A stretch of DNA of 63,764 bases from NCBI GenBank assembly GCA_937879845.1, contig CALFML010000356.1:1-63764 (forward strand), in the 5' to 3' direction. Shown in pieces: positions 3,805 through 42,964 of the stretch. A program made the translations under genes and the position numbers. The DNA is from an uncultured Myxococcales bacterium (GTDB lineage Bacteria > Myxococcota_A > Polyangia > Palsa-1104 > JAEUJZ01). The first letter of the stretch is position 1. Each line of letters begins with the position of its first letter. The notes under the pieces were generated by a model. The model was not told the origin of the DNA. It saw only the letters and a program-made list of their open reading frames with translations, and ran no database searches.

Positions 3805-5575
3805 GGGTGAGCTGGTCCTTGTATTGGTAGATCGGAGTTCCGGTTGTAAACGTCGGGGAGAGCCGCGTGAGGTAGTCGTCACCGGTCAGATCCTGCACCA
3901 GCTTGCGGGTCTGCGGCGCGACCTTGGGATCGCCATCGCCGTCGACCGCCAGCGTCGCGTCATCGATCGTCAGCGCCTCATCCGGTGTGGTGACGGAGTG
4001 GTAGCTGAACGAGTAGCGCCCGCTGTCAAACGGCGAGCCGAAGCTCATGGCGCCGATTCCCTGGATGGGATTGAGCATGAAGTTCCAGCCGATGATGGCG
4101 TAGTGGAGCTTGGCGCCGATCATGTTGGCGTACGTGGACAGGATGCTCGCGCAGTCGCTGCAGTTTACGATCTTGCCGCGCGACCTCTCCAGAAACGCCG
4201 CCAGAGAGAACGTCGCGCTCGCCCAGCCGCCGCCGGCATATTTGGTGTAATGGGAGGCGCCGGACTTGCGATCGTAGGTGAGTCCCATCTCTTCATTTAC
4301 GTACTGGACCAGGATGGCCCGCGCCGCCGCGGCATCGCTCGCCTTGCCGGCGATGCGGACCGTCGCTTCATCGACCACCGCGACCCAGGGCAGATCCGGC
4401 GCCGCGGTGCCCTGCTCGTTGCCCAGGACGCCGTAGAAGCGCAGCGTGACCGACTGCTCACTGCCGGGGATGCGGACGTAGCTGCCGCCCTCCGTCTTGG
4501 CTTCGAAGTGCCAGGCCACGGCTTGATCAACGCGGGCAATCGCCGCCACCGGGGATGCGGCAAGGCGCACCGTGGCCTCGCCGCCCTCGGTCACAAGCGC
4601 GTCATCGCTGCCCGGCGTGCCATCGACCACAAGGCGGATCGGCGGGCGGCCGTCCGCCGCAAGTCCGGTCGGCTGCAGCGCCGCCAGCCCCTGGGCGGTC
4701 TTTCCCATCGTGAACACCAGATCCGGCCGCGTACCCAAAAGGAGCGACACCGGAATCGTGTAGCCGCTCTGGCTTACGGCGCCGCTGCCCGGGTCCACCG
4801 GAGGCGTTTCCAGATCGGCCCACGGCTTGTCGGGAAACAGGCGCGGGGTGCCGTCCGGCTGATCCAGATCCGACTCTCCGGTCGCGGCGGCCAGGGAGCT
4901 TGCCGCCATCGTGGCGGGGATCGGGAAGTAGTTGTCGGCGCGGTGCCCGAGCGCGTGGTACATAAGCGGGACTCGCCCGCCGCCATCGCCGTCCTTGACC
5001 CCGATCCGGGTCGCGCCAAGGCGCACGAGATAAAGCGCGGCGGTCGCGCTCTTGCTCTCGCCCGGCGTCTGGCTGGGGCAGCCGACTTCCGCCTTGAGCC
5101 GCACAAGCCCTGTGCTCAGATCCTTCTGCGTGGCCGGCGTAAACTGCAGCGGCACCATGCCGAGCGGCGCCGGTGCGTCCATCAAGGTCGCGATGAGCGT
5201 CCCATCGGCCTTGGCCAGGGTGACGCGCAGCGGATGCGGCCCCTTCTCCCCGCCGCTATCCCCGAGCACGACCGCGAACGGCAGCGGCGCCGACGATCGC
5301 AGCTCGGCGACCGGCAGCGGCAAGTCGAGCTTCGCGCTCGGGTTGCAAGCCACGCTCACCATCGCGAGATCGGGGACCTCGGGCGGCGCGGGCGGCGCGG
5401 CCAGGTCCGCGGCGGCGGGCGCCCCGTCCGGCTCCCCCGGATCCGAGCACGCCCCAAGCGTCCCCACGATCCCGAGCCCAAGACCCAGCGTCAGCCTGAG
5501 CCCGAATGCGGCTGGCCCAGAGGATAGAGATGACCCAGAGGACATAAAAGACCAAGTTGAGAGCTTCCGCGGCAC
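3794..5575 (-). CDS. Lipoprotein with a C-terminal transglutaminase-like (Cys-His-Asp) core
   Basis: GTG 5575 with AAGGAGG 7 nt upstream. Lipobox GTLGAC. C-terminal GKIVNCSDCASILSTYANMIGAKLHYAIIG..SYHSVTT..TIDDAT resembles the papain-like transglutaminase core. The functional call is tentative. Confidence 0.6.
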   Translation of the reverse strand: MPRKLSTWSFMSSGSSLSSGPAAFGLRLTLGLGLGIVGTLGACSDPGEPDGAPAAADLAAPPAPPEVPDLAMVSVACNPSAKLDLPLPVAELRSSAPLPFAVVLGDSGGEKGPHPLRVTLAKADGTLIATLMDAPAPLGMVPLQFTPATQKDLSTGLVRLKAEVGCPSQTPGESKSATAALYLVRLGATRIGVKDGDGGGRVPLMYHALGHRADNYFPIPATMAASSLAAATGESDLDQPDGTPRLFPDKPWADLETPPVDPGSGAVSQSGYTIPVSLLLGTRPDLVFTMGKTAQGLAALQPTGLAADGRPPIRLVVDGTPGSDDALVTEGGEATVRLAASPVAAIARVDQAVAWHFEAKTEGGSYVRIPGSEQSVTLRFYGVLGNEQGTAAPDLPWVAVVDEATVRIAGKASDAAAARAILVQYVNEEMGLTYDRKSGASHYTKYAGGGWASATFSLAAFLERSRGKIVNCSDCASILSTYANMIGAKLHYAIIGWNFMLNPIQGIGAMSFGSPFDSGRYSFSYHSVTTPDEALTIDDATLAVDGDGDPKVAPQTRKLVQDLTGDDYLTRLSPTFTTGTPIYQYKDQLTHAR

Positions 5576-29921: not shown

Positions 29922-32459
29922 CTACTGCGTGATCGTCAGGGCCGCGTCATCGACGAAGAAGCTCGTGGCCAGGAGCGCATCCTCAACGCCCTTGAAGTGG
30001 ACGCGGATGGTCTTGCCCTTGTAGGCCGCAAGGTCGAACGTCTTCTGCGAGTAGGCGCCGGCATCGACGTTGCTGTACGTTCCCAGGGTTCCCAGCACGG
30101 TGCCGGCGGAGTCCTGCACCGTCACCGTCAGCTTGTCATACACCTTGGTGCCGGTCTCCTTGGTCTCGATGGCGAGCCAGAAGGACAGCTTGGCGCTGCA
30201 GGCGGTGGCCGGGATGGCTACCTGCTGGTACATCGTATCGGTGTGCGTCCGGCCGTAGCCGTTCATCCAGCCGACCCACGCGCCGCTGTGGGCGTTGGTG
30301 GCGTCGTTGTTGTCGATGACGCCGCCGCTGGTCGTCCAGCCGGTGTCGCCGGCTTCGAAGTCGGCGTTGGTGAGGAGCTGGCTGGTCGTGGTGCAGCTGC
30401 CGGTCATGTTGCTGACCGTCACGCTCACCGCGGCCGAGGTGCCGACGTTGCCGGCCGCATCGTAGGCCTTGCTGGTCAGCGCGTAGGTGCCGTTGGCCAC
30501 GGTGGCGGAGTTCCACGAAAGCGCGTAGGGGGCGGAGGTGTCGCTGCCGATGAGCGTGGTGCCGGCGTAGAACTCGACCTTGGCGACCGCGATGTTGTCG
30601 CTGGCGTTGGCGGTCACGTTGACGGTGCCGGTGAGCGTGGTGCCGGCGGCCGGTGCGGTGAGCGAGGTGGTCGGCGCGGTGGTGTCGGTGCCGCCGCCGC
30701 CGTGCGCCTTGCCGACGTTGATGGCGGCAAAGGCGTTCTCGACCGCCGCGTACTCATCGCTCGTCGCGCCGTACAGATCCGTGGCCGCGGCAAGGAACGC
30801 GGTGCGGGCCGCGGCGTAGTTGGTGCTCGAGGTCATCTTGACGGTCAAGGCGCGGAAGGCGATGCGCGCGGCCTTGTCGTTGGTGATGCCGGTCATGCCG
30901 GCCGGCATGTACGAGCTATACGCATCGTCGGTGGCGACGCTGCTCGAGCCCTGGCTGAGGAAGTAGAAGGCGCGGTTCATCGGACCGCTTGAGTAGTGGA
31001 CATCGAGTCCGCCGACCGAGGTCGACCAGGCGTTGGGGCTCGCCCCGTCCTTGCTCGGCTTTATCATGAAGCGCAGCGGGGTGGTCGAGAGCTGATCGCC
31101 GATGAGCCAGTTGCCGCCGGTGTTGCCGATGGTGGAGCCGCTGCCGCCGCGCGAGTAGAACTCGACCATGGTGCCGTTGATGTCGGACATCGACTCGTTC
31201 AAGCCGCCCGACTCGCCGCTGTAGGTGAGGTTGGCGGTGCGCGAGGTCACGCCGTGCGTCATCTCATGGCCGGCGACGTCGATGCTGGTCAGCACCTTGA
31301 AGGCGCTGCCGTCGCCGTAGGTCATGCAGAAGCAGGTGTCGTCCCAGAACGCGTTGTCGTAGTTCTTGCTGTAGTGGACGCGGTTGTATGTCGCCTTGCC
31401 CGCGCCGTCGATGCCGTTGCGGCCGTGGACCTTGGAGTAATAGTCGAAGGTCTGCTCCGTGCCGTAGTGCGCATCGACGCCGGCGGTCTGGCCGTTGTCA
31501 TTGGTAGTGGAGCCGCCCGAGGTGTAGTTCTTGCCGTCGCCCCAGGTGTTGTCCGGATCGCTGAAGATGGTGCCGGTGCCGCTCGTGCCGTGGTTCAGGT
31601 TGTAGGTGGCGATGTTCATCGACCGCGCGATGTCGCGCAGCTCGAAGCCGCCGGTGATGCTGTTGGTGCCAAGCTGCACCGTCGCGCCGCTGTACTCGGA
31701 GTTGCCGGTGCCGGTCGCCGCGGTGGTGAGCAGCGTGTTCCACTTCTTGAGGATGGTGCCGTCGTGCGCGCTTATGATGTAGTCGGTGTGCCGGGTCTCT
31801 TGCGCCCCGTTTTCCAGCGCCGTGCGGACGTAGTAGGCCAGCGTGTAGCGATCGACCACGCGCTCGATGTCCTCGGCGTTGAGCTCGCCGCCGCTGCCGC
31901 GCAGGAGGGTGGCGCGCGGGTGCTCGCTGATCTCGGGATAGACGATAAGCTCGACGCTCGGCGTGCCGGCGTAGGGGCCGCGCGGCTTCAGATCGGCGTG
32001 CGTGATGCTGAGGATCTGGCTCGGGCTCAGGGTCGGAACGGTGGACAGGTTGGCCGCCGCCTTGAGCGTGTGAATGACCGAGCGCGGCTCGCTCTGCGGG
32101 GACAGCTCGACGATTCCCTCGCTCTCCCAGATGCGTACGCCGCGGTAGGTCTGGTCAAAGCGCAGGTGGGTCAGTCCGAACTCATCGACCACGGCGCTGC
32201 GCGCCTGGAAGTTGTGGTCGGCGCTGAGGTTGAGGCTCGTGCGCAGCGCCAAAAGGTGCTCGCTGCCGCGCTGGATGAACGAGGCCATCCGCGGATCGCT
32301 GCGCAGCGACTCCGCAGCCTTCTCGATCGAGTTGTCTTGCGGGTCCTCCACGTCCTTTTGCGGGGTGCAGCCTTGTGCAAGCAGGAACGCCGCCGCTGCG
32401 GTCAGCGGCAGAGTCAGATCGCGATGGATGCGCGTGATGAACGAGAGCGTCTTTTTCAT
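29922..32459 (-). CDS. Secreted M4 (thermolysin-like) zinc metalloprotease with C-terminal Ig-like and carbohydrate-binding-like domains
   Basis: Lipobox or signal LLAQGC. FTP/PepSY-like propeptide. Catalytic motifs VAGHEMTHGV (HExxH) and GGLNESMSD. The C-terminus carries tandem beta domains. Confidence 0.9.
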   Translation of the reverse strand: MKKTLSFITRIHRDLTLPLTAAAAFLLAQGCTPQKDVEDPQDNSIEKAAESLRSDPRMASFIQRGSEHLLALRTSLNLSADHNFQARSAVVDEFGLTHLRFDQTYRGVRIWESEGIVELSPQSEPRSVIHTLKAAANLSTVPTLSPSQILSITHADLKPRGPYAGTPSVELIVYPEISEHPRATLLRGSGGELNAEDIERVVDRYTLAYYVRTALENGAQETRHTDYIISAHDGTILKKWNTLLTTAATGTGNSEYSGATVQLGTNSITGGFELRDIARSMNIATYNLNHGTSGTGTIFSDPDNTWGDGKNYTSGGSTTNDNGQTAGVDAHYGTEQTFDYYSKVHGRNGIDGAGKATYNRVHYSKNYDNAFWDDTCFCMTYGDGSAFKVLTSIDVAGHEMTHGVTSRTANLTYSGESGGLNESMSDINGTMVEFYSRGGSGSTIGNTGGNWLIGDQLSTTPLRFMIKPSKDGASPNAWSTSVGGLDVHYSSGPMNRAFYFLSQGSSSVATDDAYSSYMPAGMTGITNDKAARIAFRALTVKMTSSTNYAAARTAFLAAATDLYGATSDEYAAVENAFAAINVGKAHGGGGTDTTAPTTSLTAPAAGTTLTGTVNVTANASDNIAVAKVEFYAGTTLIGSDTSAPYALSWNSATVANGTYALTSKAYDAAGNVGTSAAVSVTVSNMTGSCTTTSQLLTNADFEAGDTGWTTSGGVIDNNDATNAHSGAWVGWMNGYGRTHTDTMYQQVAIPATACSAKLSFWLAIETKETGTKVYDKLTVTVQDSAGTVLGTLGTYSNVDAGAYSQKTFDLAAYKGKTIRVHFKGVEDALLATSFFVDDAALTITQ

Positions 32460-32547: not shown

Positions 32548-32563
32548 AGCAAATTTTGCGCCA
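32548..32563 (-). promoter_or_regulatory. sigma54-type -24/-12 promoter candidate (TGGCGC-N5-TTGCT)
   Basis: Minus strand reads gcTGGCGCaaaatTTGCTct, with one mismatch to TGGCAC-N5-TTGCW. About 90 nt upstream of ATG 32459 of the M4 protease gene. Confidence 0.55.
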
Positions 32564-32583: not shown

Positions 32584-32952
32584 CTAGCGCGAGCGAAAAA
32601 TCCGCTCGTCGGTGCGCGCCTCGCGGGAGGAAAAAGGAGGCCGTGCTGCGGGGTCTGTGCTCCCAGCAATGGCCGACTTTCTGACCCCGGGCGGGGGGGA
32701 CGCCCCCAGGGGGGAGCCGCGAGCTTGCAGCCCGGGAGCTACAAAAAAGGAGGCGCTGACGATTGACTCGGTTTTTAGACCGCAGCGGGATGATTCATCG
32801 CTGGCTTTGAACTCAAAGGGGTAGCTCACGCGCAGCTCGCCGCCGTCATCGGGAGCTGGGAACTGGGCGGCGTACAAGGTCTCTTGCAGGCACTCCTTCA
32901 TCCCGGCATCGGTGATGGTGCTGGCGGCGGCGTCGATCGTGCTTGCGGTCAC
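32584..32952 (-). pseudogene. Possible remnant of a TonB-C/AgmX-PglI-like C-terminal domain gene
   Basis: Only the first ~48 codons look protein-like (..DAGMKECLQETLYAAQFPAPDDGGELRVSYPFEF); the rest is low-complexity. The frame is open upstream but has no ATG or GTG and runs into the start of the 33071 gene. Confidence 0.25.
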
Positions 32953-33070
32953 CGGGCCGCCGATGCCGGTATATGCCGCCCCCGCGCAAAGTGTTGGCGG
33001 AAACCGAGCCGACGGCGCGACAGCGCTCTCCTTGCTTTTGCCCGCCGCGGCAATTCTATAGATTGAAGAA

Positions 33071-33463
33071 ATGAACCCTTGGCTTGCGCGGCTGCGCCAC
33101 GATTTGTTAAAGCCCGCCCTGTGGTGCGTGCGCGACCTGCGCGACAGCGGACGCCTGGATGATGCGGCGCCGCTCGACGCGGCGGATCGGCGCGCGCTGC
33201 GCCGCAGCTTGCTGGAGCTTTACGACGGCGAAGGGCGCCGCGTCACCGCCGCGGTCTTATGGCGCGAGCTGCGCGCCGACAGCGATGCCGCCGCCGCGGC
33301 GCTCGATGCCTTCGAGACTGCGGTCGCCGCGGCGGAGGCGGCGGCGGTCGCCGACCTTGCGGCGGGCGACCGGGATGCAGGCAGTCGGCCTTCTCTGCTC
33401 CTCGCCGCGGTGCTGCGCCTGGAGTCAGCATTCTTATTGCTTGCGCAAGAGATAGATAGGTAA
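33071..33463 (+). CDS. Small helical protein with H-box-like N-terminus (hypothetical)
   Basis: ATG 33071, high third-position G+C, stop 7 nt before the activator gene. WLARLRHDLLKPALW resembles a histidine-kinase H-box. Confidence 0.55.
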   Translation: MNPWLARLRHDLLKPALWCVRDLRDSGRLDDAAPLDAADRRALRRSLLELYDGEGRRVTAAVLWRELRADSDAAAAALDAFETAVAAAEAAAVADLAAGDRDAGSRPSLLLAAVLRLESAFLLLAQEIDR

Positions 33464-33469
33464 AGACCC

Positions 33470-35239
33470 ATGCCGCGCCTCCTCGTCATCGACGATCGCG
33501 ATCACACCATCGAGATGTGCCACCGCCACCTCGATCGGTTCGACTATCTCACCCGCTGCGACCGCCGCGTGCCGTGCCAGGTGTGCGAGGAGCGCGACCG
33601 CGGCTGCCCCCTCAAGTGCGCCCATGACTACGGCGAGGCGGCGGAGGTGCTGGCGCGCAGCGATGCGCTGCCGGATCTGGTCGTGCTCGACCTGCACTTC
33701 GCGGTGCCGGAGGAGCGGCTGTTACCGGAGGACAAGAGCCACCTGCCGACCGAGCCGCCGGCCCGGCGGCGCGAGCTGGAGCTCCTGCGCCGCCGCCAGG
33801 GCCTGCTCATCTTGGAGCGCCTGCGCCATGAGTACCCGACCCTGCCGGTCGTCCTTCTGACTACCACCGACACCGAGCTGCCGCAGCGCCCGCCGAGCGA
33901 TCCCCTGGTCTACTTCTGCGAGAACGAGATCGTCGACAGCCGCACCCTGGCCGGCGAGATCACGCGCGCCCTGGCGCTGCACCACCAGGCGCAGGAGGGA
34001 CCGATCTTTTGGGGCCAGAGCCGGCCGATGGCGGAGCTGCGCGGCGCGCTCACCACCCTTTCGCGCTCGCCGCTGCCGGTGCTCTTGCAGGGGGAGACCG
34101 GAACCGGCAAAAGCTACCTCGCCGAGCACTTCATCCACCCGCGCTCCGGCACCAAGGGCCCGCTCATCATCACCGATCTCAGCACGATTCCGCCGGCGCT
34201 GCTGGCCGGCCACCTGTTCGGCTCGCGGCGCGGCTCCTACACCGGCGCGGTCGAGGATCACGCCGGCGTGTTCGAGCAGGCGCACGGCGGCACGCTTCTA
34301 TTAGATGAGATAGCGAATCTCGATCTGGACATGCAGCGCCAGCTGCTCCTGGTCATCGAGCGCGGCCAGGTGACGCGGCTCGGCGAGGTGCGGCCGCGGC
34401 CGGCGGTGGTAAAGCTCGTGGCGGCGACCAACCAGGATCTGGCGGTGCTCGTGCAAAAAGGCCGCTTCCGCGCCGACCTTTATATGCGGCTAAATCCCGC
34501 CACCCGGCTGTGGGTGCCACCGCTGCGCGAGCGGCGCGAGGATCTGCCGGAGCTGTTCCGCTACGCCCTGCTCAAGGCCCTGCAGAGCGAGGCGCTGCGG
34601 CCGCTGTTGCGCGATTTCCTCGCCCGATTTCCCACGCCGGAGGACTTTCGCGAAGACAACAGCGTGGTGGTCTTCGGCAAGCCCGACGTGCGGCTGGCAC
34701 GACGCGACGCCTTTACGATCTTTTTGAGCCGGCGCAGCCTGGCGCAGCTTGGCGCCTACGACTGGCCCGGCAACCAGCGCGAGCTCAAGATGCTGGCGAC
34801 CAGCGCCGTGGTCTTCACCCTGGTCGAGCACCTCGACAGCGCGGCGACGGCGGGCAGCAAGTCGGCGGCCGCGGCGCGGGCGCCGGCGATCCTGGCGATT
34901 TCCGACAAGCGCATCGAGCACCTGCTCGGGCAGAACCTGGCGCTCAATGCGGCGGCGGGCGGCACCGAACAAAGATCCGCGGCAGAGCCGACGGCCGCGG
35001 CGGAGCTTGGCCAAGAGGGGGCGCAGGTTACGGTCCAGGTTCGCCCCGGGCCGAGCTTCGTCAAGATCTCGACCGACGTCGAGCGGCAGTACTTCCGCGC
35101 GCTGTTCGCGGCCACCGGTGGCGATCTCGAACTGATGGCGAAAAAGCTCCTGGGTCCGGACGGGGCGGCGCGGCAGGTGCATCTGCGCCTCAACCAGCTA
35201 GGCCTGAGCCTGCGTGAGCTGCGGGGAGCGCGCTCATGA
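33470..35239 (+). CDS. sigma54-dependent transcriptional activator (NtrC-family EBP) with atypical receiver-like N-terminal domain
   Basis: AAA+ motifs: GETGTGKS, GSYTGA (in place of GAFTGA), GGTLLLDEI, RADLYMRL, PLRERREDL. C-terminal Fis-type HTH. The N-terminus has LLVIDD..LVVLDLHF..VVLLTT with a Cys cluster and an insert. Confidence 0.9.
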   Translation: MPRLLVIDDRDHTIEMCHRHLDRFDYLTRCDRRVPCQVCEERDRGCPLKCAHDYGEAAEVLARSDALPDLVVLDLHFAVPEERLLPEDKSHLPTEPPARRRELELLRRRQGLLILERLRHEYPTLPVVLLTTTDTELPQRPPSDPLVYFCENEIVDSRTLAGEITRALALHHQAQEGPIFWGQSRPMAELRGALTTLSRSPLPVLLQGETGTGKSYLAEHFIHPRSGTKGPLIITDLSTIPPALLAGHLFGSRRGSYTGAVEDHAGVFEQAHGGTLLLDEIANLDLDMQRQLLLVIERGQVTRLGEVRPRPAVVKLVAATNQDLAVLVQKGRFRADLYMRLNPATRLWVPPLRERREDLPELFRYALLKALQSEALRPLLRDFLARFPTPEDFREDNSVVVFGKPDVRLARRDAFTIFLSRRSLAQLGAYDWPGNQRELKMLATSAVVFTLVEHLDSAATAGSKSAAAARAPAILAISDKRIEHLLGQNLALNAAAGGTEQRSAAEPTAAAELGQEGAQVTVQVRPGPSFVKISTDVERQYFRALFAATGGDLELMAKKLLGPDGAARQVHLRLNQLGLSLRELRGARS

Positions 35240-38200
35240 TCGCTGCTTTGAGTCTGCTGCTCTTGGCGGCGGGCCTGCCCGCACCGCCGCCGACTGCCGC
35301 GACAGCTGCGCCGTCCGCGTCGCGGAGCGTCCGCGCCGGCCGCCGCCCTGCGGTCGGCCCGTCGGCGCTGCAGGCGACCGCGCAGCTTTTGGAGCAAGCG
35401 CTCAAAGACAGCCCGGACGACCTTGATACGATAAACCAGCTGGCCCAGGTGCTGGCGCAGCTCGGCCGCCGGGCGGAGTCGCAGGCTCTGTATCGCCGCG
35501 CCATCGCTCAGGCGCCGGACAACTGGCTGGCCTATGCGCGCCTGGCGGAGCTTTTGACCCAAGATCCGCGCCGCTGGGAACAGCGCGGCGAGGTCGGGGC
35601 CCTGCTCAAGACGGGACTCTTGCGCACCACGGAGGATGTCGAAGGCCACCTGCGTCTCCTCATCAGCACCGCCAACTTCGAGCGCGCGGTCGGCCAGACG
35701 CAGGCGGCGCGGGCGCGTCTGCAGGTGCTGGAGACGGCGGCGCTGCCGGCCGCGGTGCGCAAGCAGGTGCTGGATCTTTTAGATGACATCCAGAGCGATG
35801 AACAGCAGAGCGCCCTGCGCGACTGGCCGGAGCCGCCGATACCGCCAGGGCTAAGAGGCCAGCTGCTCATCGCCGAGCAGTCCTTGCGCGACGGCGATGC
35901 CCAGTCCGCGCTGCGCGATGTCGATGCGCTGCTGCGCGCTGGGGCGAGCTGGCGCGCCCCGCGCTGGCTGCGCGCGCGGGCGCTGGAGGCGCTCGGCCGC
36001 TTCGACGATGCGGAGCGCGAGCTGACCATTTTATTGCAGCTGTCGCCGTCGCACGCGGCGGCGTGGCGGGAGCTTGGCATCCTGCTGGCGGCGCACGGCG
36101 GGGCCCTCGATGCCGGACGGAGCGATGAGGCGCTGCGGCACGCGCTGGCGCTGGAGCCGGGCTACTTCGATCTGTGGCTCCTGCGGGCGCAAGTTTCCCT
36201 GCGGCGCGGGGATCTGGCGGCGGCCCAGAGCGCGCTGCAGCGCTACCTGCGCGAGGCGCTGGAGCAGGCGCCGCAGAAGCTCCACGATCTGGAAGTGCGC
36301 CGGCTGCTGCACGCGGTCAAGGGGCAGCCGGATACCGCGCAGCAGCCGGCCCGCCTCGGACGTAGCGCCGCGGTACCTTCGGCCAAGGCGCAGGAGCTCT
36401 ATCACCAGGCCAAGGACTGGCTCAAGAGCGGCGATCCCGTCGGGCTGGCCCCCGATCTTTTGGCCGCGGCGCTGCAGGACTCTCCGGGCTTTATCGATGC
36501 CGCAGTCACCACGTACGCGCTGACCGGACAGGTACCGCCGGCGACCGTGGCCGCGCTGTGGCAAGACGGGGAGGCGCTGCTGGAACTCGGGCGTCAGCTG
36601 CGCGCCCTTGTGAGTACGGCGGAGACGCGGCAGGCGCTGCGGCCGTGGCTCGATCGCGCCATCGCGCTCGGCAACCAGGCGGCGTACTTTGAGCGCGGCG
36701 CGCTCTTGATTGAAGACAATAAGCCCGCAGAGGGGCTTTCCGACCTGCGCGCCTATGTCGCGGCGGCGGCTTCGCCGGTGGCGCTGGACGAGGCGCGGGT
36801 GCTGCTCACGGCGGTGGACAGTCCGGGGGCGGAGGAGGCCGTGCTGACGCGCGCCCGCAGCCTGCTTCTTTCGGACAAGCCGCAGGAGGCGATTGCGGCG
36901 CTGGGCGGCGTGTGCCGGGACGGGGAGGGCGGCGCGGTCGGGGCGCCGCGGCTGCTCATGCTCGGGGTGGTGCATGAGTGGGCGGGCGAGCTTGCGGCGG
37001 CGGTGGAGTGCTACCGGCTGGCCCTGCGCCACGGGGCTGCCGCCGCGTCCTTGCCGCGCCTGGCCGGGGTTGCGGCGCGGGCGCCGCTGCCGCTTACCGC
37101 GCAGCTCGAACCGGAGCTGAAGCAAGCCGCGGCGCAGGAGGTAAACGCCCCGAGCGCTCACTTCGCCCTGGCCCGGTTGGCGCTCTCGCGCGGTGCGACC
37201 GAGCCGGCGCTCGCCCGCATCGACAGCTTCCTGCGCGAAGCGCCGCTGCAGGATCCAAGCCGCGGCGCGGCGCTGTTCATCCGCGGCCAGATCACCGCGG
37301 AGCGGGCGCGCCTGCAGCACAAGGTGCAAGTCCGCCGCTTCACGATCGGCGCGCTGATCCTTTTGGCGCTCGGCGGCGTGCTGGTGTGGCTGCTGCGCGG
37401 CCGCACGCTGGCCCGCGCCCTGGTGCGGCGGCCTGCGCTTTTTCCAGAGCTGGCGCGAACCATCGGCCAGCTCCGGCACGATGTCCTCAAGCACCGCACG
37501 AGCGCCCTGGGCCTGCTCGCCGGCGACCCCGGGCGCGTGGACGAGCTGCATGAGCAGGTGCAGCACATGCTCTGGGAACCCGAGCGCGCCTCCAGCCTTA
37601 TCGCCGCCGCCTATGCCCGGCTGCAGACTGCGGCGCGGGCGCACGGCGTGCTGCTGCGGCCGCTCCACCGCGAGCCGATCTTCGGCCCGCTCGTGCGCGA
37701 TCTGCGCCGCGCCGAGTCGCTGCTGCGGGCAGAGCGCCTGACGCCGGCCGCCCTTACGCGCCTGCGCCGGGTGGATGAGCGCTTGCGCGAGCTGCACTCC
37801 GAGCGGCTCGGCTCCCTGCTGCGCCTGGGGCCGCGCACCCGCGTCGATGCGCTGCTGATTACGGCGTGGATCCGCGATGTCGAAGCGGAGCTGCGCCTGC
37901 GCATGCAGCCGTGGATCTCGCCGGTGCTCCTTCTAGAGGGGCTGGACCTGGAGTTCCCGGTGGAACGGCAGGCGCTCATGACGCTGTTTGTAAACCTTTT
38001 GCGCAATGCCCAGGCCGCGGTGGCGAGCGAGCCCGAAGCCGCCAGCCCGCCGAGCGTGCTGGTGCGCGTCGGCGAAGAGCGCGACGCCCTGGGCCGCCGC
38101 CTGCTGCTGCTCCTGGTCGGCGACTCGGCGACGCACGAGCTGACCCTGGAGACCGTCGAGCGGCGTGAGAGCGGACGCGGGCTCGCCATCCTGCGCGATC

Positions 38201-38286
38201 TCGTGCACGAGTGGCGCGGGCACCTCATCGTCCGAGCGGAGAGTCCGCCTTTGATAAAAGGAGTGGGGGCATGCTTCCCGACCTGA
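35236..38286 (+). CDS. Periplasmic TPR-repeat sensor with one TM helix and a cytoplasmic GHKL (histidine-kinase-like) ATPase
   Basis: ATGA overlap with the EBP gene. Signal peptide followed by ~700 aa of TPR-like repeats. TM helix FTIGALILLALGGVLVWLL. H-box-like IGQLRHDVLKH, N-box LFVNLLRNAQAAV and G2-like SGRGLAILRDLV. Confidence 0.75.
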   Translation: MIAALSLLLLAAGLPAPPPTAATAAPSASRSVRAGRRPAVGPSALQATAQLLEQALKDSPDDLDTINQLAQVLAQLGRRAESQALYRRAIAQAPDNWLAYARLAELLTQDPRRWEQRGEVGALLKTGLLRTTEDVEGHLRLLISTANFERAVGQTQAARARLQVLETAALPAAVRKQVLDLLDDIQSDEQQSALRDWPEPPIPPGLRGQLLIAEQSLRDGDAQSALRDVDALLRAGASWRAPRWLRARALEALGRFDDAERELTILLQLSPSHAAAWRELGILLAAHGGALDAGRSDEALRHALALEPGYFDLWLLRAQVSLRRGDLAAAQSALQRYLREALEQAPQKLHDLEVRRLLHAVKGQPDTAQQPARLGRSAAVPSAKAQELYHQAKDWLKSGDPVGLAPDLLAAALQDSPGFIDAAVTTYALTGQVPPATVAALWQDGEALLELGRQLRALVSTAETRQALRPWLDRAIALGNQAAYFERGALLIEDNKPAEGLSDLRAYVAAAASPVALDEARVLLTAVDSPGAEEAVLTRARSLLLSDKPQEAIAALGGVCRDGEGGAVGAPRLLMLGVVHEWAGELAAAVECYRLALRHGAAAASLPRLAGVAARAPLPLTAQLEPELKQAAAQEVNAPSAHFALARLALSRGATEPALARIDSFLREAPLQDPSRGAALFIRGQITAERARLQHKVQVRRFTIGALILLALGGVLVWLLRGRTLARALVRRPALFPELARTIGQLRHDVLKHRTSALGLLAGDPGRVDELHEQVQHMLWEPERASSLIAAAYARLQTAARAHGVLLRPLHREPIFGPLVRDLRRAESLLRAERLTPAALTRLRRVDERLRELHSERLGSLLRLGPRTRVDALLITAWIRDVEAELRLRMQPWISPVLLLEGLDLEFPVERQALMTLFVNLLRNAQAAVASEPEAASPPSVLVRVGEERDALGRRLLLLLVGDSATHELTLETVERRESGRGLAILRDLVHEWRGHLIVRAESPPLIKGVGACFPT

Positions 38287-38762
38287 AGCCGCCGCTGCCG
38301 ATCTGGATCGTCTGTGAGGACGGCACCGAGTACCTGGACCGCTTCGCGCGATTTCTCGGGGAGCGGTTCTCTTTTGTCGCCGCGCTCGATGGACCGGCGC
38401 TCGTCGCCATGCTGGCAGAGCCGGCGGGGGCGCGGGCCAGCGGCGTGCTGCTCGACCTCGATTTTCGCCGCACGCCGTCGGAGCGGCTGGTCGATGAGCA
38501 GGGCCGCTCGGGCCAGGTGCTGGGGGAGCAGCAGCGGCGCCGGCTGACCGGCCCGCAGGGGATCCTGATCCTGCGCTTGTTGCGCGCCCACGGCTCCCGC
38601 CTGCCGGTGCTCCTGTGCGCCGATCTCGACGACGCCGCCCAGACCGCCTACCTGGAGCGCACCCTGGCGCCGCTGACCATCGTGCCGAGCCACGAGGGCC
38701 TGCGCGAGATCGCCGCCCGCATGCAGGCGATGAGTCAAGGCTCCGCCGCCCCGCCGAAGTAA
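38271..38762 (+). CDS. Stand-alone receiver-like protein with insertion after the putative acceptor Asp
   Basis: ATG 38271 (AAAGGAG SD) lies inside the last 16 nt of the kinase gene. IWIVCED..GVLLDLDF..[insert RRTPSERLVDEQGRSGQVLGEQQRRRLTGPQGILILRLLR]..LPVLLCAD. Confidence 0.6.
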   Translation: MLPDLKPPLPIWIVCEDGTEYLDRFARFLGERFSFVAALDGPALVAMLAEPAGARASGVLLDLDFRRTPSERLVDEQGRSGQVLGEQQRRRLTGPQGILILRLLRAHGSRLPVLLCADLDDAAQTAYLERTLAPLTIVPSHEGLREIAARMQAMSQGSAAPPK

Positions 38763-38778: not shown

Positions 38779-38794
38779 GTAGAGGCTCCTCTAC
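38779..38794. promoter_or_regulatory. Palindrome GTAGAGG-ct-CCTCTAC, candidate activator-binding site (or weak hairpin)
   Basis: 7-bp perfect arms read directly. The centre lies ~90 nt upstream of the -12 element at 38878-38879. Confidence 0.35.
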
Positions 38795-38863: not shown

Positions 38864-38880
38864 CTGGCCCGCGCGATGCA
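38864..38880 (+). promoter_or_regulatory. sigma54-type -24/-12 promoter candidate (TGGCCC-N5-ATGCA)
   Basis: cTGGCCCgcgcgATGCA has GG and GC cores at consensus spacing and two non-core mismatches. It lies 32 nt upstream of ATG 38912, with GGAAAGGAG SD in between. Confidence 0.5.
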
Positions 38881-38911: not shown

Positions 38912-40165
38912 ATGCGTTATCTAGAACCCGTACGGTCTTTCTTCAAGCGTCTCGGCTATGTCCTTTTGGCGACTCCCTGGGCGGTGGTCCTGGGGCTCAT
39001 CGAGATCTTGCGCAGCGAGCGCGGACGGCGGCTGCTCGCCGGTCTGAGTCTGCTTGGACTTCTGGCCGCGGCGGGGCTTGCCCACCCGGTGCGCACCATC
39101 ATGCCGGGCGAAGTCGGGGTGCGCTATAACCGCATCACCGGCACCATGACCGAGGTGCGGGAGGGCTGGGTCCTGCTCTTGCCGGGCCTGCAGGAGCTGC
39201 ACCGCTACTCCCTGCGCGATCAGGTCTACCGCCCGACCCGCAGCGCCCGCGCCGCCGGCGAATCTCCCTACCAGTCGGTCGAGGGCCTGTCGCTCGGCGT
39301 CGATGTGTCGGTGCGCTACGCCCTCGATCCGAGCCGCATTCCCGCCGTGGCGCGCAAGCTGCCTACCGATATCGGGGTGCAGCTCGTCGAGCCGGTCGTG
39401 GATGGGGTGCTGCACCGGACGTTCGCCAAGCACACCGTGCGCGAGATCTTCTCCACCCACCGCGCCGACATCCAGAAGTCGCTCACCGAGGAGCTCGGCG
39501 GACTCCTTTTGCCCGACGGGGTGATCGTGCGCGCGGTCTTTTTGGGCAGCGTCGATCTTCCCACCGAGTACAAAAACGGGCTGGAAGCGCTCCTTTCAGA
39601 GGAGCTGCACGCGGAGAAGATGCGCTACACGCTGGAGCTCAAGGAGAAGAAGGTCAAGGAGTCGGAGCTTGACGCCGAAGCGCAGAAGGTCCAGCGCGAA
39701 AAGTCCGCCGAAGCCGCCGGCCGCGAGGAGGTGATCGCCGCCAAGGCCAAGGCGGAGGCGATGCAGCACATCCTGCCGTTCAAAGAGCGCGAGATCGAGC
39801 AGAAGCGCCTGGAAGCGGAAGCGCAGAAAGTCCAGCGGCTCAAGCACGCCGAAGGCGAGGCGGAGGCGCGGCGCATCGAGTCGGCCGGCGAGGCGGAGGC
39901 GCGGCGCAAGCTCGCCGAGTCCGATGCCTACCGCGCCGAGGTGCTGGGCAAGGCCAACAGCGAGCAGCTGGCGCGCGAGTCGGCGCTCATCGCCAAGAAC
40001 CCGCTGCTCATCCAAAAGACGCTGGCCGATAAGCTGTCGGACAAGATCCAGGTCATCATCGCGCCGCCGACCGCGGGCGGGTTCTTCGCCGGGTCGCTGC
40101 TCGGACAGGGCAAGCCGGAGGCGGCGCGCGATGACAACAAGCGCGCCGGCGCGGAGGAGGAATAA
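38912..40165 (+). CDS. SPFH/band-7 (prohibitin/HflK-like) membrane protein with long E/A/K-rich coiled coil
   Basis: N-terminal TM segments. SPFH core: PGEVGVRYNRITG..LLLPGLQELHRYSLRDQVY..LSLGVDVSVRYALDP. Followed by a coiled-coil region rich in EAxxK repeats. Confidence 0.85.
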   Translation: MRYLEPVRSFFKRLGYVLLATPWAVVLGLIEILRSERGRRLLAGLSLLGLLAAAGLAHPVRTIMPGEVGVRYNRITGTMTEVREGWVLLLPGLQELHRYSLRDQVYRPTRSARAAGESPYQSVEGLSLGVDVSVRYALDPSRIPAVARKLPTDIGVQLVEPVVDGVLHRTFAKHTVREIFSTHRADIQKSLTEELGGLLLPDGVIVRAVFLGSVDLPTEYKNGLEALLSEELHAEKMRYTLELKEKKVKESELDAEAQKVQREKSAEAAGREEVIAAKAKAEAMQHILPFKEREIEQKRLEAEAQKVQRLKHAEGEAEARRIESAGEAEARRKLAESDAYRAEVLGKANSEQLARESALIAKNPLLIQKTLADKLSDKIQVIIAPPTAGGFFAGSLLGQGKPEAARDDNKRAGAEEE

Positions 40166-40167
40166 AG

Positions 40168-41688
40168 ATGTTGCCGCTCCTTTTGCTCTGTGCGCTGGTC
40201 GTCGAGGATCAAACGGCCCTGCGCGCCGCCCCGCAGGAGAGCACGCCGCGTCAGGCGGTGCTGTGGCGCGGCGACTGGCTGGAGGTGCGAGGGGAGCGCG
40301 CCGGTTATCTCCATGTCTATGACCACCGGCATGAGCGGCCCGGCTATGTGCGTCCCTCCCAAGTCCGGACCTATCCGCTGGAAGAAGCGAGCGCCCCGGC
40401 GCTGCACGCGGTGATCGATTTTCTCCGCGATACGCCGGGGGCGGAGTCGCTCGGCATCGGCTACGCGGCGCTGTACCTGCGGACGGCGCCGGCGGCCGCG
40501 GTGGGAAGCGAGGTGTTCGCCGCCCTGGGGCAGTTCGCCGAGCGGCTCGGGCGGCGGGCCTCGGCGCGGCGGGCCGGCGCGGGGCGGGAGGACGCGGCGC
40601 TGGCTGCCCACCTGGAGGTCGCGCAGAGCTACGGCGTAAAGTTTGTAAGCACGGAGCGCAAGGAGCACACCCAGGTCTGTTACGACGGCGAGGCGTTCCG
40701 CCGCGTCCTGGCGCTGCCGGCGCCGCCGGTGCAAAAGGCGCGGGCGGCGCTCTACCTCACCCACCCCGACTGCGTCCCGCCCGAGCTTGGACCGAGCGAC
40801 CGCCAGCTCGTGCAGGAGTGGGCGGTCACGGTGCTTGCGCGCGTCGATCCGGCGGCGGTGCCGGCGGCGCTCGGCAATCGCCTGCGGCTGCGGCGGGCGG
40901 CGGCGCTGGCGGAGCTTGTGTTTCACTATGCCCGCAAGGGCGACATGGTTCGCGCCGCGGCGCACAGCGAGCAGGCGGTGCGCGAGCTGGCTCTGGTCAA
41001 CCGGCCGGAGTTATATGAGGAAGACGGCGCTTGGTACGACGCGGTGGCGGTGCGTGTCGGCACCGCGCGCTGGGCGGCGGAGCCGGTGCGCCCGCCGCGC
41101 GGCCCGGCGGCGCTGACGCTGGAGACCCAGCCCGGCCAGCCCGGCGAGACCTGCGTGTCCCTTTTCGAGCGCCGGCCGGGCGCGGGCAAAGGCGAGGAGA
41201 AAAAGGAGCTGCTGCGCAAGTGCACCTACGGCCTGGTCTGGAACCAGTCGCTGCGCATCGCCCCGCGCGGCCAGGCTCTGGTCGTCGCGGTGCAGCCGTT
41301 GCCGAGCTGGAACGAGCTGTGGGTCTTCCATAAAGACGACGCTCCCGCGCAGACCGCAGAAGCGACCAAAGAAGCGACCAAAGAAGCGGCCAAAGCGGGA
41401 TCCACAGACAGCCCGGACGCCGGCCCCGGCTGGCGGCTTGACACGCTGTCCCCTGCGACCGTGGACCCGTACCTCGGCAACATCGAGCTCGCCGGCTTTA
41501 CTCCCGACGGCGCCCGCCTGCTCGTGGCCCGCGAGGCCGAGGTCCAAGGGACGATCCGGCGCGAGTTCCAGGTCGTGCGGCTGTCCACCCTGAGCGTCGA
41601 AACCCAGGCGCGCAGCGCCGACCGGCTGGCGGCCTTCCGCAGCTGGCAGTCTGCCGATTGGCAGAGCCGCACCCTCGCTCTCCGCTAA
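40168..41688 (+). CDS. Secreted hypothetical protein with N-terminal SH3b-like segment
   Basis: ATG lies 3 nt after the SPFH stop, with GGAGGAGGAA SD. Signal peptide. AVLWRGDWLEVRGERAGYLHVYDHRHERPGYVRPSQV is SH3-like. In-frame (EATK)x3 12-bp repeat at 41359-41394. Confidence 0.6.
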   Translation: MLPLLLLCALVVEDQTALRAAPQESTPRQAVLWRGDWLEVRGERAGYLHVYDHRHERPGYVRPSQVRTYPLEEASAPALHAVIDFLRDTPGAESLGIGYAALYLRTAPAAAVGSEVFAALGQFAERLGRRASARRAGAGREDAALAAHLEVAQSYGVKFVSTERKEHTQVCYDGEAFRRVLALPAPPVQKARAALYLTHPDCVPPELGPSDRQLVQEWAVTVLARVDPAAVPAALGNRLRLRRAAALAELVFHYARKGDMVRAAAHSEQAVRELALVNRPELYEEDGAWYDAVAVRVGTARWAAEPVRPPRGPAALTLETQPGQPGETCVSLFERRPGAGKGEEKKELLRKCTYGLVWNQSLRIAPRGQALVVAVQPLPSWNELWVFHKDDAPAQTAEATKEATKEAAKAGSTDSPDAGPGWRLDTLSPATVDPYLGNIELAGFTPDGARLLVAREAEVQGTIRREFQVVRLSTLSVETQARSADRLAAFRSWQSADWQSRTLALR

Positions 41689-41803: not shown

Positions 41804-42964
41804 ATGAATCCCGCCGCCGCACCTGTCCGGCCCGACTCCGCCCCGCCTCCCGTGGTCGCTTGGTATGTATGGAGCACCGTCCTGTCCGTGGCCTGCGCCA
41901 TCTTCGGGGTGCAGTGGGACATCGCCTGGCACCGCTCGATCGGCCGCGATACGTTCTGGTCGCCGCCGCATATGATGATCTATCTGGGCGCGGTGCTGGC
42001 GGGGCTGTCGTGCGGCTACCAGATCCTGACGATGACATTTGGCCGTAGCGAAGGGGCGCTTTGCACCGTGCGCATCTGGGGTTTCCGCGGACCGCTCGGG
42101 GCCTTCATCACCGCCTGGGGCGGCATCGCCATGCTCGCGTCGGCGCCGTTTGACAACTGGTGGCACGACACCTACGGGCTCGATGTCAAGATCATGAGCC
42201 CGCCGCACGCGGTCTTGGCGCTGGGACTTTTGGGCCTGCAGCTCGGGGCGCTGATCTTCCTCTGCGGCCTGATGAACCGCGCCCGCGGGCAGACGCAGCG
42301 GCTGCTCCGGCTCCTTTTTCTGTTCATCGGCGGCTTCATCCTGATCGGACTTCTGACCTTCCAGATGGAGTTTATCCGCCGCACCGTGCAGCACAGCGGG
42401 TTTTTCTACCGCACCGTGGCGACCTGCGTCCCGCTTATCCTGATGGGAGTCGGGCGCGCCTCCGGCCACCGCTTCGGCGCGACGATCATCACCGCGTTTT
42501 ACACCATAGAGATGACGCTTATCATTTGGCTGTTTCCGCTGGTTCCGGCGACGCCCAAGCTCGGCCCGGTGTACCAGCAGGTCACCCATCTGATTCCGCC
42601 CGGCTTCCCTCTTTTGCTGATCGCTCCGGCGCTGGTCATGGATCTCATGGCGGCGCGTTTGGCGACCCGGCCGCTGCTGCTACAGAGCCTGGTCCAGGCG
42701 GCGTGCTTTCTTTTCGTCTTCGGTCTTGTGCAGTGGCCGTTCGCGGAGTTTCTGCTCTCTCCCGCTTCACGCACCTGGGTGTTCGGCACGCACTACGTAA
42801 GCTACAGCTCACGCAGCTTTTCTCCGGAGGTGCGGAACGTATTTTTCGATATGGACGGCCAGCTCGGATTGGTCCGCCAGCTTGGGTTGGCGGCGGTGCT
42901 CGCGGTGCTGAGCACTCGGCTCGGGCTGGCGGCGGCGGCTTTTCTGCGCGGGCTGCGGAGGTGA
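41804..42964 (+). CDS. Polytopic membrane protein with duplicated W-H...SPPH motifs (hypothetical)
   Basis: About 10 hydrophobic segments. WDIAWHRSIGRDTFWSPPH and DNWWHDTYGLDVKIMSPPH are repeated motifs. Confidence 0.65.
   Translation: MNPAAAPVRPDSAPPPVVAWYVWSTVLSVACAIFGVQWDIAWHRSIGRDTFWSPPHMMIYLGAVLAGLSCGYQILTMTFGRSEGALCTVRIWGFRGPLGAFITAWGGIAMLASAPFDNWWHDTYGLDVKIMSPPHAVLALGLLGLQLGALIFLCGLMNRARGQTQRLLRLLFLFIGGFILIGLLTFQMEFIRRTVQHSGFFYRTVATCVPLILMGVGRASGHRFGATIITAFYTIEMTLIIWLFPLVPATPKLGPVYQQVTHLIPPGFPLLLIAPALVMDLMAARLATRPLLLQSLVQAACFLFVFGLVQWPFAEFLLSPASRTWVFGTHYVSYSSRSFSPEVRNVFFDMDGQLGLVRQLGLAAVLAVLSTRLGLAAAAFLRGLRR

Follow-up and report, generated by a model that had tools for sequence, protein, structure and literature searches.

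What do four tightly packed genes of an uncultured Myxococcales bacterium encode, and which genes do they control? The genes lie on contig CALFML010000356.1 (assembly GCA_937879845.1), the whole 63,764 nucleotides (nt) of which were analysed and are called the window here, and they encode, in this order, a small protein with a histidine motif (P1), a sigma-54 activator, a sensor kinase with TPR repeats and a stand-alone receiver (P4). An initial annotation, made from the DNA letters, described them as a branched or multi-step phosphorelay with a possible metal or redox input. Our analysis shows that the cassette is real and is conserved as a unit, and it indicates that two-component signalling has here a variant not described before, not that a system of another kind has been found. 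Furthermore, it revealed a probable output that the initial annotation had missed, namely an operon next to the cassette, with genes for SPFH and DUF2914 proteins, that is preceded by a conserved sigma-54 promoter.

The four co-directional open reading frames (ORFs), with a 6-nt gap, an ATGA overlap and a 16-nt overlap between them, were all confirmed in the sequence, and the motifs quoted in the initial annotation were located where it had placed them. ATG 38271 was accepted as the start codon of P4, because P4 homologues begin with MLP. Related loci were collected by scanning one genome per GTDB species with two peptide patterns, so that the taxonomic range obtained is a lower bound; the scan yielded 69 loci, to which six metagenome loci were added. 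All 69 scanned loci come from distinct species represented by metagenome-assembled genomes of uncultured Polyangia, Myxococcales or "Deltaproteobacteria", with no cultured host among them. When the window proteins were mapped onto the loci, the order P1, activator, TPR kinase, P4 was found in all but one of the 47 loci that included enough upstream DNA (46/47), and the overlapping stop and start codons recurred in related loci. The objection that the gene order might not be conserved in Myxococcota outside the source genome therefore fails. It also holds that the cassette matches no named two-component variant, since searches of Pfam, NCBIfam and PADLOC, sequence searches of the PDB and searches of the literature gave no characterised family, whether for the receiver insert, the Cys cluster, P1 or P4. 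The literature searches returned no description of the cassette, and PADLOC returned no defence system, its matches being confined to the AAA+ core of the activator (RtcR/PspF models).

The likely target of the cassette lies beside it. Downstream of P4 are the genes for an SPFH/Band-7 membrane protein and for a 506-residue protein (Table 1). The SPFH protein, which has two N-terminal hydrophobic segments according to its hydropathy and a long C-terminal coiled-coil-like region, is 61-63% identical to its cassette-linked counterparts in loci L001 and L004 and 49-65% identical to those in other loci. The 506-residue protein, for which no Pfam, NCBIfam or PADLOC family was found, is 46-48% identical to its counterparts in L001 and L004 and 45-50% identical to those in most other loci, with higher values over short partial matches. 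In most other loci the homologues of these two genes are located upstream of P1 and are transcribed divergently from it, and they are often headed by a gene for a 123-residue DUF2914 protein; five loci have the DUF2914 gene without a detected SPFH gene. DUF2914 was sought in the window and none was found; it is an optional member of the operon. The short intergenic region of the divergent loci contains the sequence CGGCACG-N4-CTGCA on the operon strand in 25 of 28 cases, with three more recovered under a relaxed consensus, and the background frequency of such sites is 0.13 per kb, counting both strands over 1 Mb of loci. In two loci the operon is arranged in tandem with the cassette, and both have a GG-N10-GC element before the SPFH gene, TGGCCCGCGCGATGCA in the window and TGGCCGGCGGCTTGCT in L037. 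All promoter and binding-site calls in this work are consensus-based. Because of the position and the conservation of this promoter, the adjacent activator is the candidate for driving the SPFH operon, and it is most likely that the cassette switches on the neighbouring operon through sigma-54.

A perfect inverted repeat found in the window between the P4 stop codon and this promoter is unlike a terminator and is not conserved in L037; it is only a candidate activator binding site, and a comparison of the upstream regions of the window and L037 gave no common activator-site motif. In the GSYTGA subclade (L043, L060 and L066, and partly L074), the cassette is flanked by a gene for a protein of ~790 residues and by a convergent gene for one of ~1010 residues, which we would guess from their N-terminal sequences to be MutS2-like and TreY-like, respectively. 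The target operon of L043, L060 and L066 is presumed to be elsewhere, because no SPFH or DUF2914 gene was found within 5-10 kb.

P4 belongs to no Pfam family and has no Response_reg match at E<=1; its own family comprises 594 matches of about 150 residues, typically 55-65% identical, and the named members are mostly called "hypothetical". Its AlphaFold (AF2) model, built with a 40-sequence alignment, reached a predicted local distance difference test score (pLDDT) of 93.9 and has the receiver topology of five beta-alpha units, with an extra segment after beta3 (residues 63-95, or 63-97 when delimited as the insert). When Foldseek was run against the PDB, almost every one of the top 50 matches was a receiver domain or a complete response regulator, with PhoP, CpxR and YycF as the best (probability 1.00, template modelling (TM) score normalised to the target ~0.8). 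The CheY-like, flavodoxin-like (beta-alpha)5 fold suspected for this 163-residue protein is thus supported by its predicted structure. A PDB sequence search with the P4 profile gave nothing significant, only a weak PhoP alignment that was useful for register. The residues of the acidic pocket (E16, D17 and D62) and D64 are invariant in the 40 sequences. The positions of the usual Thr and Lys in P4 were placed by the weak profile alignment to PhoP and by the strand ends of the model; on this basis the Thr/Ser position at the end of beta4 is occupied by an invariant alanine, Ala117, and the position of the conserved Lys after beta5 by Pro139-Ser140.

The N-terminal domain of the activator is a paralogue of P4, as judged from 27-33% identity in tblastn and from the alignment, and its Response_reg score is 15.1 bits, compared with the Pfam cut-off of 30.2. 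Forty-four relatives share D8, D9 and D74, the DD pair and LDLHF being kept in 41 close orthologues and L[LM]DVRF taking the place of the latter in distant ones. The Thr is kept in this domain (LLTTTD), and Cys-Glu-Asn is found where the Lys would be expected. Both receiver families have about 30 additional residues between the acceptor Asp and a QG pair, with invariant P-x-E-R-L..E and R..L...QG elements, so that the insert recognised in the initial annotation is indeed shared; however, the QG[LI]LIL..LR....LPV sequence that had been counted as part of it belongs to the core fold, because it aligns to the ordinary alpha3-beta4 of PhoP. Two residues past the acceptor there is a His in the activators, a His or Arg in their distant relatives, and an Asp followed by Phe-Arg-Arg in P4. 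To judge from these alignments, the role of the missing Lys may have passed to a basic residue close to the acceptor, the candidates being His76 in the activator and Arg66 or Arg67 in P4.

Beyond its receiver domain, the activator has an intact AAA+ core (Sigma54_activat, PF00158, 2e-48) with Walker A GETGTGKS and Walker B LLLDEI, and it scores best with RtcR/PspF-type models. The replacement of GAFTGA by GSYTGA was confirmed at 34232-34249. Among 44 relatives this loop reads GAYTGA in 33, GSYTGA in 10 and GSFSGA in 1, with the aromatic residue and TGA kept. The C-terminus gave no HTH_8 match in the window copy; two orthologues matched with E-values of 0.045-0.1 over the first 26 profile positions only.

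The cysteine cluster that the initial annotation described in the receiver domain of the activator proved to be largely conserved: C30, C36, C39, C46, C50 and H52 are present in 40 of 44 orthologues, but C17 (codon at 33518), which had been included in it, is not conserved and is replaced by Val in L001 and L004. The alignment to P4 places the cluster between beta2 and alpha2. An exhaustive HMMER search, in which the N-domain of the activator was run against 1.84 billion representatives, returned only 96 proteins, and the distant activators fall into a group with C-x5-C-x2-C-x6-C-LTHAH, in which one Cys is replaced by His, and a group in which the whole Cys insert is absent and the post-Asp insert is retained. 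The cluster is therefore a lineage-specific accessory, since related activators exist that do without the whole insert. It is probably a metal site. Whether the metal would serve as a redox- or Fe-S-based second input gating the activator, as had been proposed, is doubtful in our view, although four invariant Cys, one Cys/His position and one His lie within 23 residues, and receiver topology and the alignment would put the beta2-alpha2 loop on the face of the active site. Fe-S sensing by a sigma-54 activator has a precedent in OrpR, where it is located in a PAS domain (PMC8359166). Clustered Cys residues that possibly serve metal or redox sensing are likewise found in NifA, FNR and WhiB; in contrast to OrpR and these regulators, the cluster of the cassette lies inside a receiver fold and has another spacing, and no homology was found. 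Small zinc knuckles typically show a CxxC...CxxxC/H spacing of this kind, and related, otherwise complete cassettes such as L078 have no Cys insert, so that the insert could equally be a purely structural zinc site.

According to its hydropathy, the third protein is hydrophobic at its N-terminus (residues 1-19) and has one transmembrane helix (residues 702-720), and between them is a periplasmic TPR region of ~680 residues, with Pfam TPR matches between residues ~45 and ~600. In the window copy Pfam found only these repeats, and neither HATPase_c nor HisKA was matched even at E<=1. The GHKL ATPase claimed in the initial annotation thus has no Pfam match in this copy, but it is supported by the homologues and by the structure model. 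When 33 homologues of the cytoplasmic part were searched, 31 matched HATPase_c (best E-value 2e-6), and the source annotation calls several homologues ATP-binding proteins or histidine kinases. For residues 729-1016 AlphaFold gave a model (pLDDT 94.1) in which five helices precede an alpha/beta domain, and Foldseek matched it to the DHp-CA domains of ZraS, which was the best structural match, and of HK853, CpxA, KinB and CckA, at E-values of about 1e-6 to 1e-5; a PDB sequence search with the profile of the cytoplasmic part gave nothing significant. The conserved elements are R-H-D on the first helix, the Asn of the N box and GRGL of the G2 box, with the G1 box reduced to one Asp. In the numbering of the 288-residue cytoplasmic query (37420-38283), R19, H20, D235 and G254 are invariant, and N192 and N196 are nearly so. 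The invariant R-H-D/E motif has a HisKA-like spacing.

P1 has 22 close homologues, as well as recognisable distant ones in other cassettes, and its invariant residues are L5, R7, H10, D11, W18 and D22. The spacing of H-D-L-x-x-P in P1 resembles that of a HisKA H-box. The RHD[LV]LK motif that had been noticed in both P1 and the kinase contains an invariant His in both proteins. When P1 was compared with the helical region of the kinase by hhalign, only the 15-residue motif was aligned, with a probability of 46%; the likeness is therefore that of a shared motif, and a broader paralogy is unsupported. P1 matched no Pfam family (20 family members searched at E<=10 gave noise) and nothing in a PDB sequence search.

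P1-like proteins also accompany activators in more divergent cassettes. Protein P0286, from the region 7194-9814 of L076, is a clean ORF of 727 residues in which a P1-like N-terminus (LSHLRHDLIKH) is fused to an activator with a GSFSGA loop; four other apparent fusions (P0243, P0249, P0262 and P0270) were rejected as frameshifted, low-quality translations, which leaves P0286 as the only clean one. L077 (1838-5111) encodes a receiver-like protein of 145 residues, a P1-like protein of 108 residues (LLHDVGKY), an activator and a MotA/ExbB-family protein, and L078 encodes a P1-like protein (RLRHDLGKY), an activator without the Cys cluster, a TPR kinase (IRHEILKH) and a receiver.

Upstream of P1, a hexamer of the TAGAAT, TATAAT or TAGAT type was found 6-8 nt 5' of the start codon in most inspected loci, with the variants TTCTATAGAAT, TTCTGTAGAAT and TCTATATAAT; it is possible that this hexamer marks a leaderless P1 transcript or an operator. 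Scans for the sigma-70 consensus and for terminators were negative both near the P1 start, where no full promoter was recovered, and beyond P4. The divergent loci have another motif, ATCTATG-TTTTA, ~20 bp beyond the hexamer, between P1 and the sigma-54 promoter. A sigma-54-like sequence, CGGC[GA][CT]GCC[CT]TCTGCA, is present on the minus strand 128 nt into P1 in L036, L043, L054, L061 and L072, which belong to one subclade, and it may simply reflect conserved coding sequence.

A protein with a histidine kinase-like fold, two receivers with acidic pockets and a second protein with an invariant His, all within a conserved unit, make up a parts list that fits the multi-step or branched phosphorelay of the initial annotation, with phosphotransfer being the element that we infer. 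We tentatively propose, with confidence that falls somewhat short of even, that the cassette is a self-contained sigma-54 module of uncultured Polyangia in which a His-Asp-His-Asp relay drives the envelope-related SPFH operon. In such a relay, the TPR domain would sense an envelope or periplasmic cue and the kinase would autophosphorylate at His748, and phosphate would then follow a Spo0-like path from the kinase His to Asp62 of P4, to His10 of P1 and finally to Asp74 of the activator, the matched His motifs docking onto the matched receiver inserts. The phosphorylated activator would assemble and open the sigma-54 promoter of the SPFH operon, by which the membrane would be remodelled or protected. 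The Cys/His insert would bind metal; sharing a face of the fold with the active site, it could gate phospho-acceptance, or it could be purely structural. The physiological theme appears to be the envelope or membrane because of the large periplasmic TPR sensor, the SPFH scaffold as output and the known association of sigma-54 regulons with the bacterial exterior (PMC3162934).

Several observations weigh against this relay. Neither P1 nor the His-bearing helix of the kinase is matched by a profile of HisKA, Hpt or SPOB_a, and HisKA-family profiles match neither the kinase copy nor its homologues. The kinase model has five helices and no DHp hairpin, and a conserved Pro-rich linker (PALFPE) separates the transmembrane helix from the His helix and the five-helix unit. 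The kinase model is also nearly as close to the Ser kinases PDK and BCK (E ~1e-5), the TM-scores being 0.3-0.45 for both the PDK/BCK and the histidine kinase groups. The absence of the Lys from both receivers, and of the Thr from P4 as well, is common in receivers that work independently of phosphorylation. P1 is missing from L007, the sole such case among the informative loci; the TPR kinase is not adjacent in L077; and in L076 the TPR kinase is replaced by a Ser/Thr kinase of the Hanks type, the gene of which overlaps the end of the P1-activator fusion. Finally, in the GSYTGA subclade, to which the window belongs, an adjacent SPFH operon is lacking from four loci with full flanks, so that the link to this operon, although frequent, does not hold everywhere. 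The place of P1 before the activator of L007 is taken by a tandem repeat of GRVTVGS-type units (4400-4800), and the rest of the cassette persists.

Some of these points bear on an ordinary two-step system with accessories, which we consider rather unlikely. In this case the kinase would phosphorylate Asp74 directly, P4 would be a phosphate sink or an allosteric partner, and P1 would be an H-box mimic that docks on the receivers or on the ATP-binding domain as an inhibitor, a pseudo-substrate or a scaffold and not as a phosphocarrier, with the same SPFH output. This is how pairs of a kinase and an activator normally work, as is established for systems of the NtrB/NtrC type. The limitation of the likeness between P1 and the kinase to the short motif aligned by hhalign, the failure of Hpt and DHp profiles to match P1, and the persistence of the rest of the cassette without P1 in L007 would be in line with it, and the P1-activator fusion also fits a regulatory partner. 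In contrast, P1 keeps His10 and Asp11 unchanged over deep divergence, distant cassettes included, which a mere docking helix would not need, and the parts list is exactly that of a four-station relay, in which a His on the kinase and a free receiver are joined by another His protein and by the receiver of the output regulator.

Alternatively, the module could operate without phosphorylation, which we regard as improbable. The receivers would then be pseudo-receivers that bind proteins or ligands through the Arg-rich insert, the acidic pocket and the metal cluster, and the GHKL protein would be an ATP-dependent switch or a Ser/Thr kinase of the PDK/BCK or anti-sigma kind. The loss of the Lys and Thr residues, the near equality of the Foldseek matches and the Hanks kinase that occupies the place of the TPR kinase in L076 all point in this direction, as do the single Asp of the G1 box and the short ATP lid. 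However, neither receiver family shows variation in its acidic triad, and the residue after the invariant His is an Asp or a Glu, as it is in HisKA H-boxes. Pseudo-receivers usually lose such residues. A more far-reaching version of the relay is that the cassette represents a new subclass of phosphotransfer, in which a basic residue of the insert region replaces the Lys, P1 is a minimal His-phosphocarrier unrelated to Hpt or Spo0B, and the Cys/His cluster gates the acceptance of phosphate by the sigma-54 activator in response to redox state or metal; taken as a whole, this is speculative and in our estimation quite unlikely.

When compared with known systems, the cassette would work like a two-component phosphorelay that feeds a sigma-54 activator, yet it departs from the standard families in several respects: the Lys is absent from both receivers and the Thr from P4, the profile scores are below threshold, HisKA is missing, and both the G1 box and the helix-turn-helix (HTH) region are degenerate. 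The relay for sporulation in B. subtilis (KinA, Spo0F, Spo0B and Spo0A) has the same four kinds of station, including, in Spo0B, a small helical His protein with His surroundings that resemble the kinase H-box. However, no sequence relationship to it was detected, the output of the cassette is a sigma-54 AAA+ activator, its receivers have the 30-residue insert and no Lys, and its four genes are in one overlapping cluster, with a relay order that we infer. The cassette shares with NtrB/NtrC and ZraS/ZraR the receiver-AAA+-HTH architecture of the activator with its Sigma54_activat core, ZraS as the best structural match of the kinase and a GG-N10-GC target promoter. It differs from them in a receiver that scores under the Pfam threshold and contains both an insert and a Cys cluster, in GAYTGA or GSYTGA loops and a degenerate HTH, in a kinase that has a five-helix unit and neither HisKA nor HAMP, and in two extra components. 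The four-component system RedCDEF of Myxococcus xanthus is likewise a myxobacterial operon for multi-component signalling of the His-Asp type, in which His and Asp are borne by more than one protein; its domain families and output differ, and no homology was seen, no search aimed at it having been made. As in the Psp response (PspF/PspA) and other sigma-54 envelope regulons, the activator adjoins, and is divergent from, an operon for membrane stress or scaffolding; in contrast to Psp, the target here encodes SPFH/Band-7 and proteins of uncharacterised families, not PspA, and control is through receivers and a kinase, not through PspA binding. The mitochondrial PDK and BCK resemble the cassette kinase in having a helical bundle followed by a GHKL domain, but they are soluble Ser kinases (TM-scores 0.3-0.4), whereas the cassette kinase has an invariant His-Asp motif and receiver partners.

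Further features of the window surround the cassette and the operon. A multi-pass membrane protein of 386 residues is encoded 3' of the gene for the 506-residue protein (41804-42964); it has no Pfam or NCBIfam match and no cassette-side counterpart in any other locus. On the other side of the cassette, an ORF on the minus strand (32584-32952), which has no Pfam match, encodes an N-terminus that resembles the C-terminus of a protein (..KECLQETLYAAQFPAPDDGGELRVSYPFEF), and it may be the remnant of a gene from a rearrangement by which, in this lineage, the SPFH operon came to lie downstream of P4. A sigma-54-like site on the minus strand (TGGCGCAAAATTTGCT, 32548-32563), ~90 bp upstream of a gene for an M4 thermolysin-like peptidase (29922-32459, minus strand), was rejected as being at chance level, 5 sites having been found window-wide and 4.95 expected. 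The closest relative, L073, has a differing upstream sequence with the end of a co-directional ORF.

Table 1. Positions of the cassette genes, the neighbouring operon and their sequence features in the window
Feature	Position	Strand	Description
TTCTATAGAT element	33054..33063	+	TAnAAT-type, -10-like hexamer; last base 7 nt before P1 ATG
P1, small protein	33071-33463	+	130 residues
P1 H-box-like motif WLARLRHDLLKP	33080-33115	+	contains His10
Sigma-54 activator	33470-35239	+	589 residues
Activator domains	33470..35239	+	atypical receiver, residues 1-175; AAA+ core, residues 182-343; degenerate Fis-like C-terminus, 35078-35212
Cys/His cluster C30-x5-C36-x2-C39-x6-C46-x3-C50-x-H52	33557..33625	+	22-residue insertion relative to P4
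Post-acceptor insert, ~34 residues	33701..33802	+	after Asp74 (LDLHF, then AVPEERLLPEDK...RRRQG); counterpart in P4
TPR sensor kinase	35236-38286	+	1016 residues
Kinase transmembrane helix	37339-37395	+	by hydropathy
Kinase PALFPE..LRHDVLKHR motif	37432-37497	+	His748 codon 37477-37479, conserved
Kinase GHKL boxes	N box 37984-38022, G1 Asp 38110-38130, G2 38167-38193	+	degenerate GHKL after five-helix region
P4, stand-alone receiver	38271-38762	+	163 residues
Inverted repeat GTAGAGG-CT-CCTCTAC, perfect	38779..38794		between P4 stop and sigma-54-type promoter, ~70 bp upstream of the latter
Sigma-54-type promoter TGGCCCGCGCGATGCA (GG-N10-GC)	38865..38880	+	31 nt before SPFH start codon
SPFH/Band-7 membrane protein	38912..40165	+	Band_7 (PF01145) 2.1e-19, 70.7 bits vs 23.6 cut-off; likely regulated target
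506-residue protein	40168..41688	+	always 3' of SPFH gene

Of the six conserved proteins encoded in the window, three, namely P1, P4 and the partner of ~500 residues, are in no described family, and the kinase and the receiver of the activator are too divergent for the standard profiles, so that routine annotation misses the whole system in a host group, the uncultured soil Polyangia, that is widespread. All of the parts are small and soluble enough for direct work in vitro. If the relay that we tentatively favour is correct, the cassette would add to two-component signalling a subclass of receivers that function without the canonical Lys as well as a new small His carrier, and it would provide a defined sigma-54 output, the operon for an SPFH membrane scaffold, that ties periplasmic sensing by TPR repeats to the organisation of the membrane.

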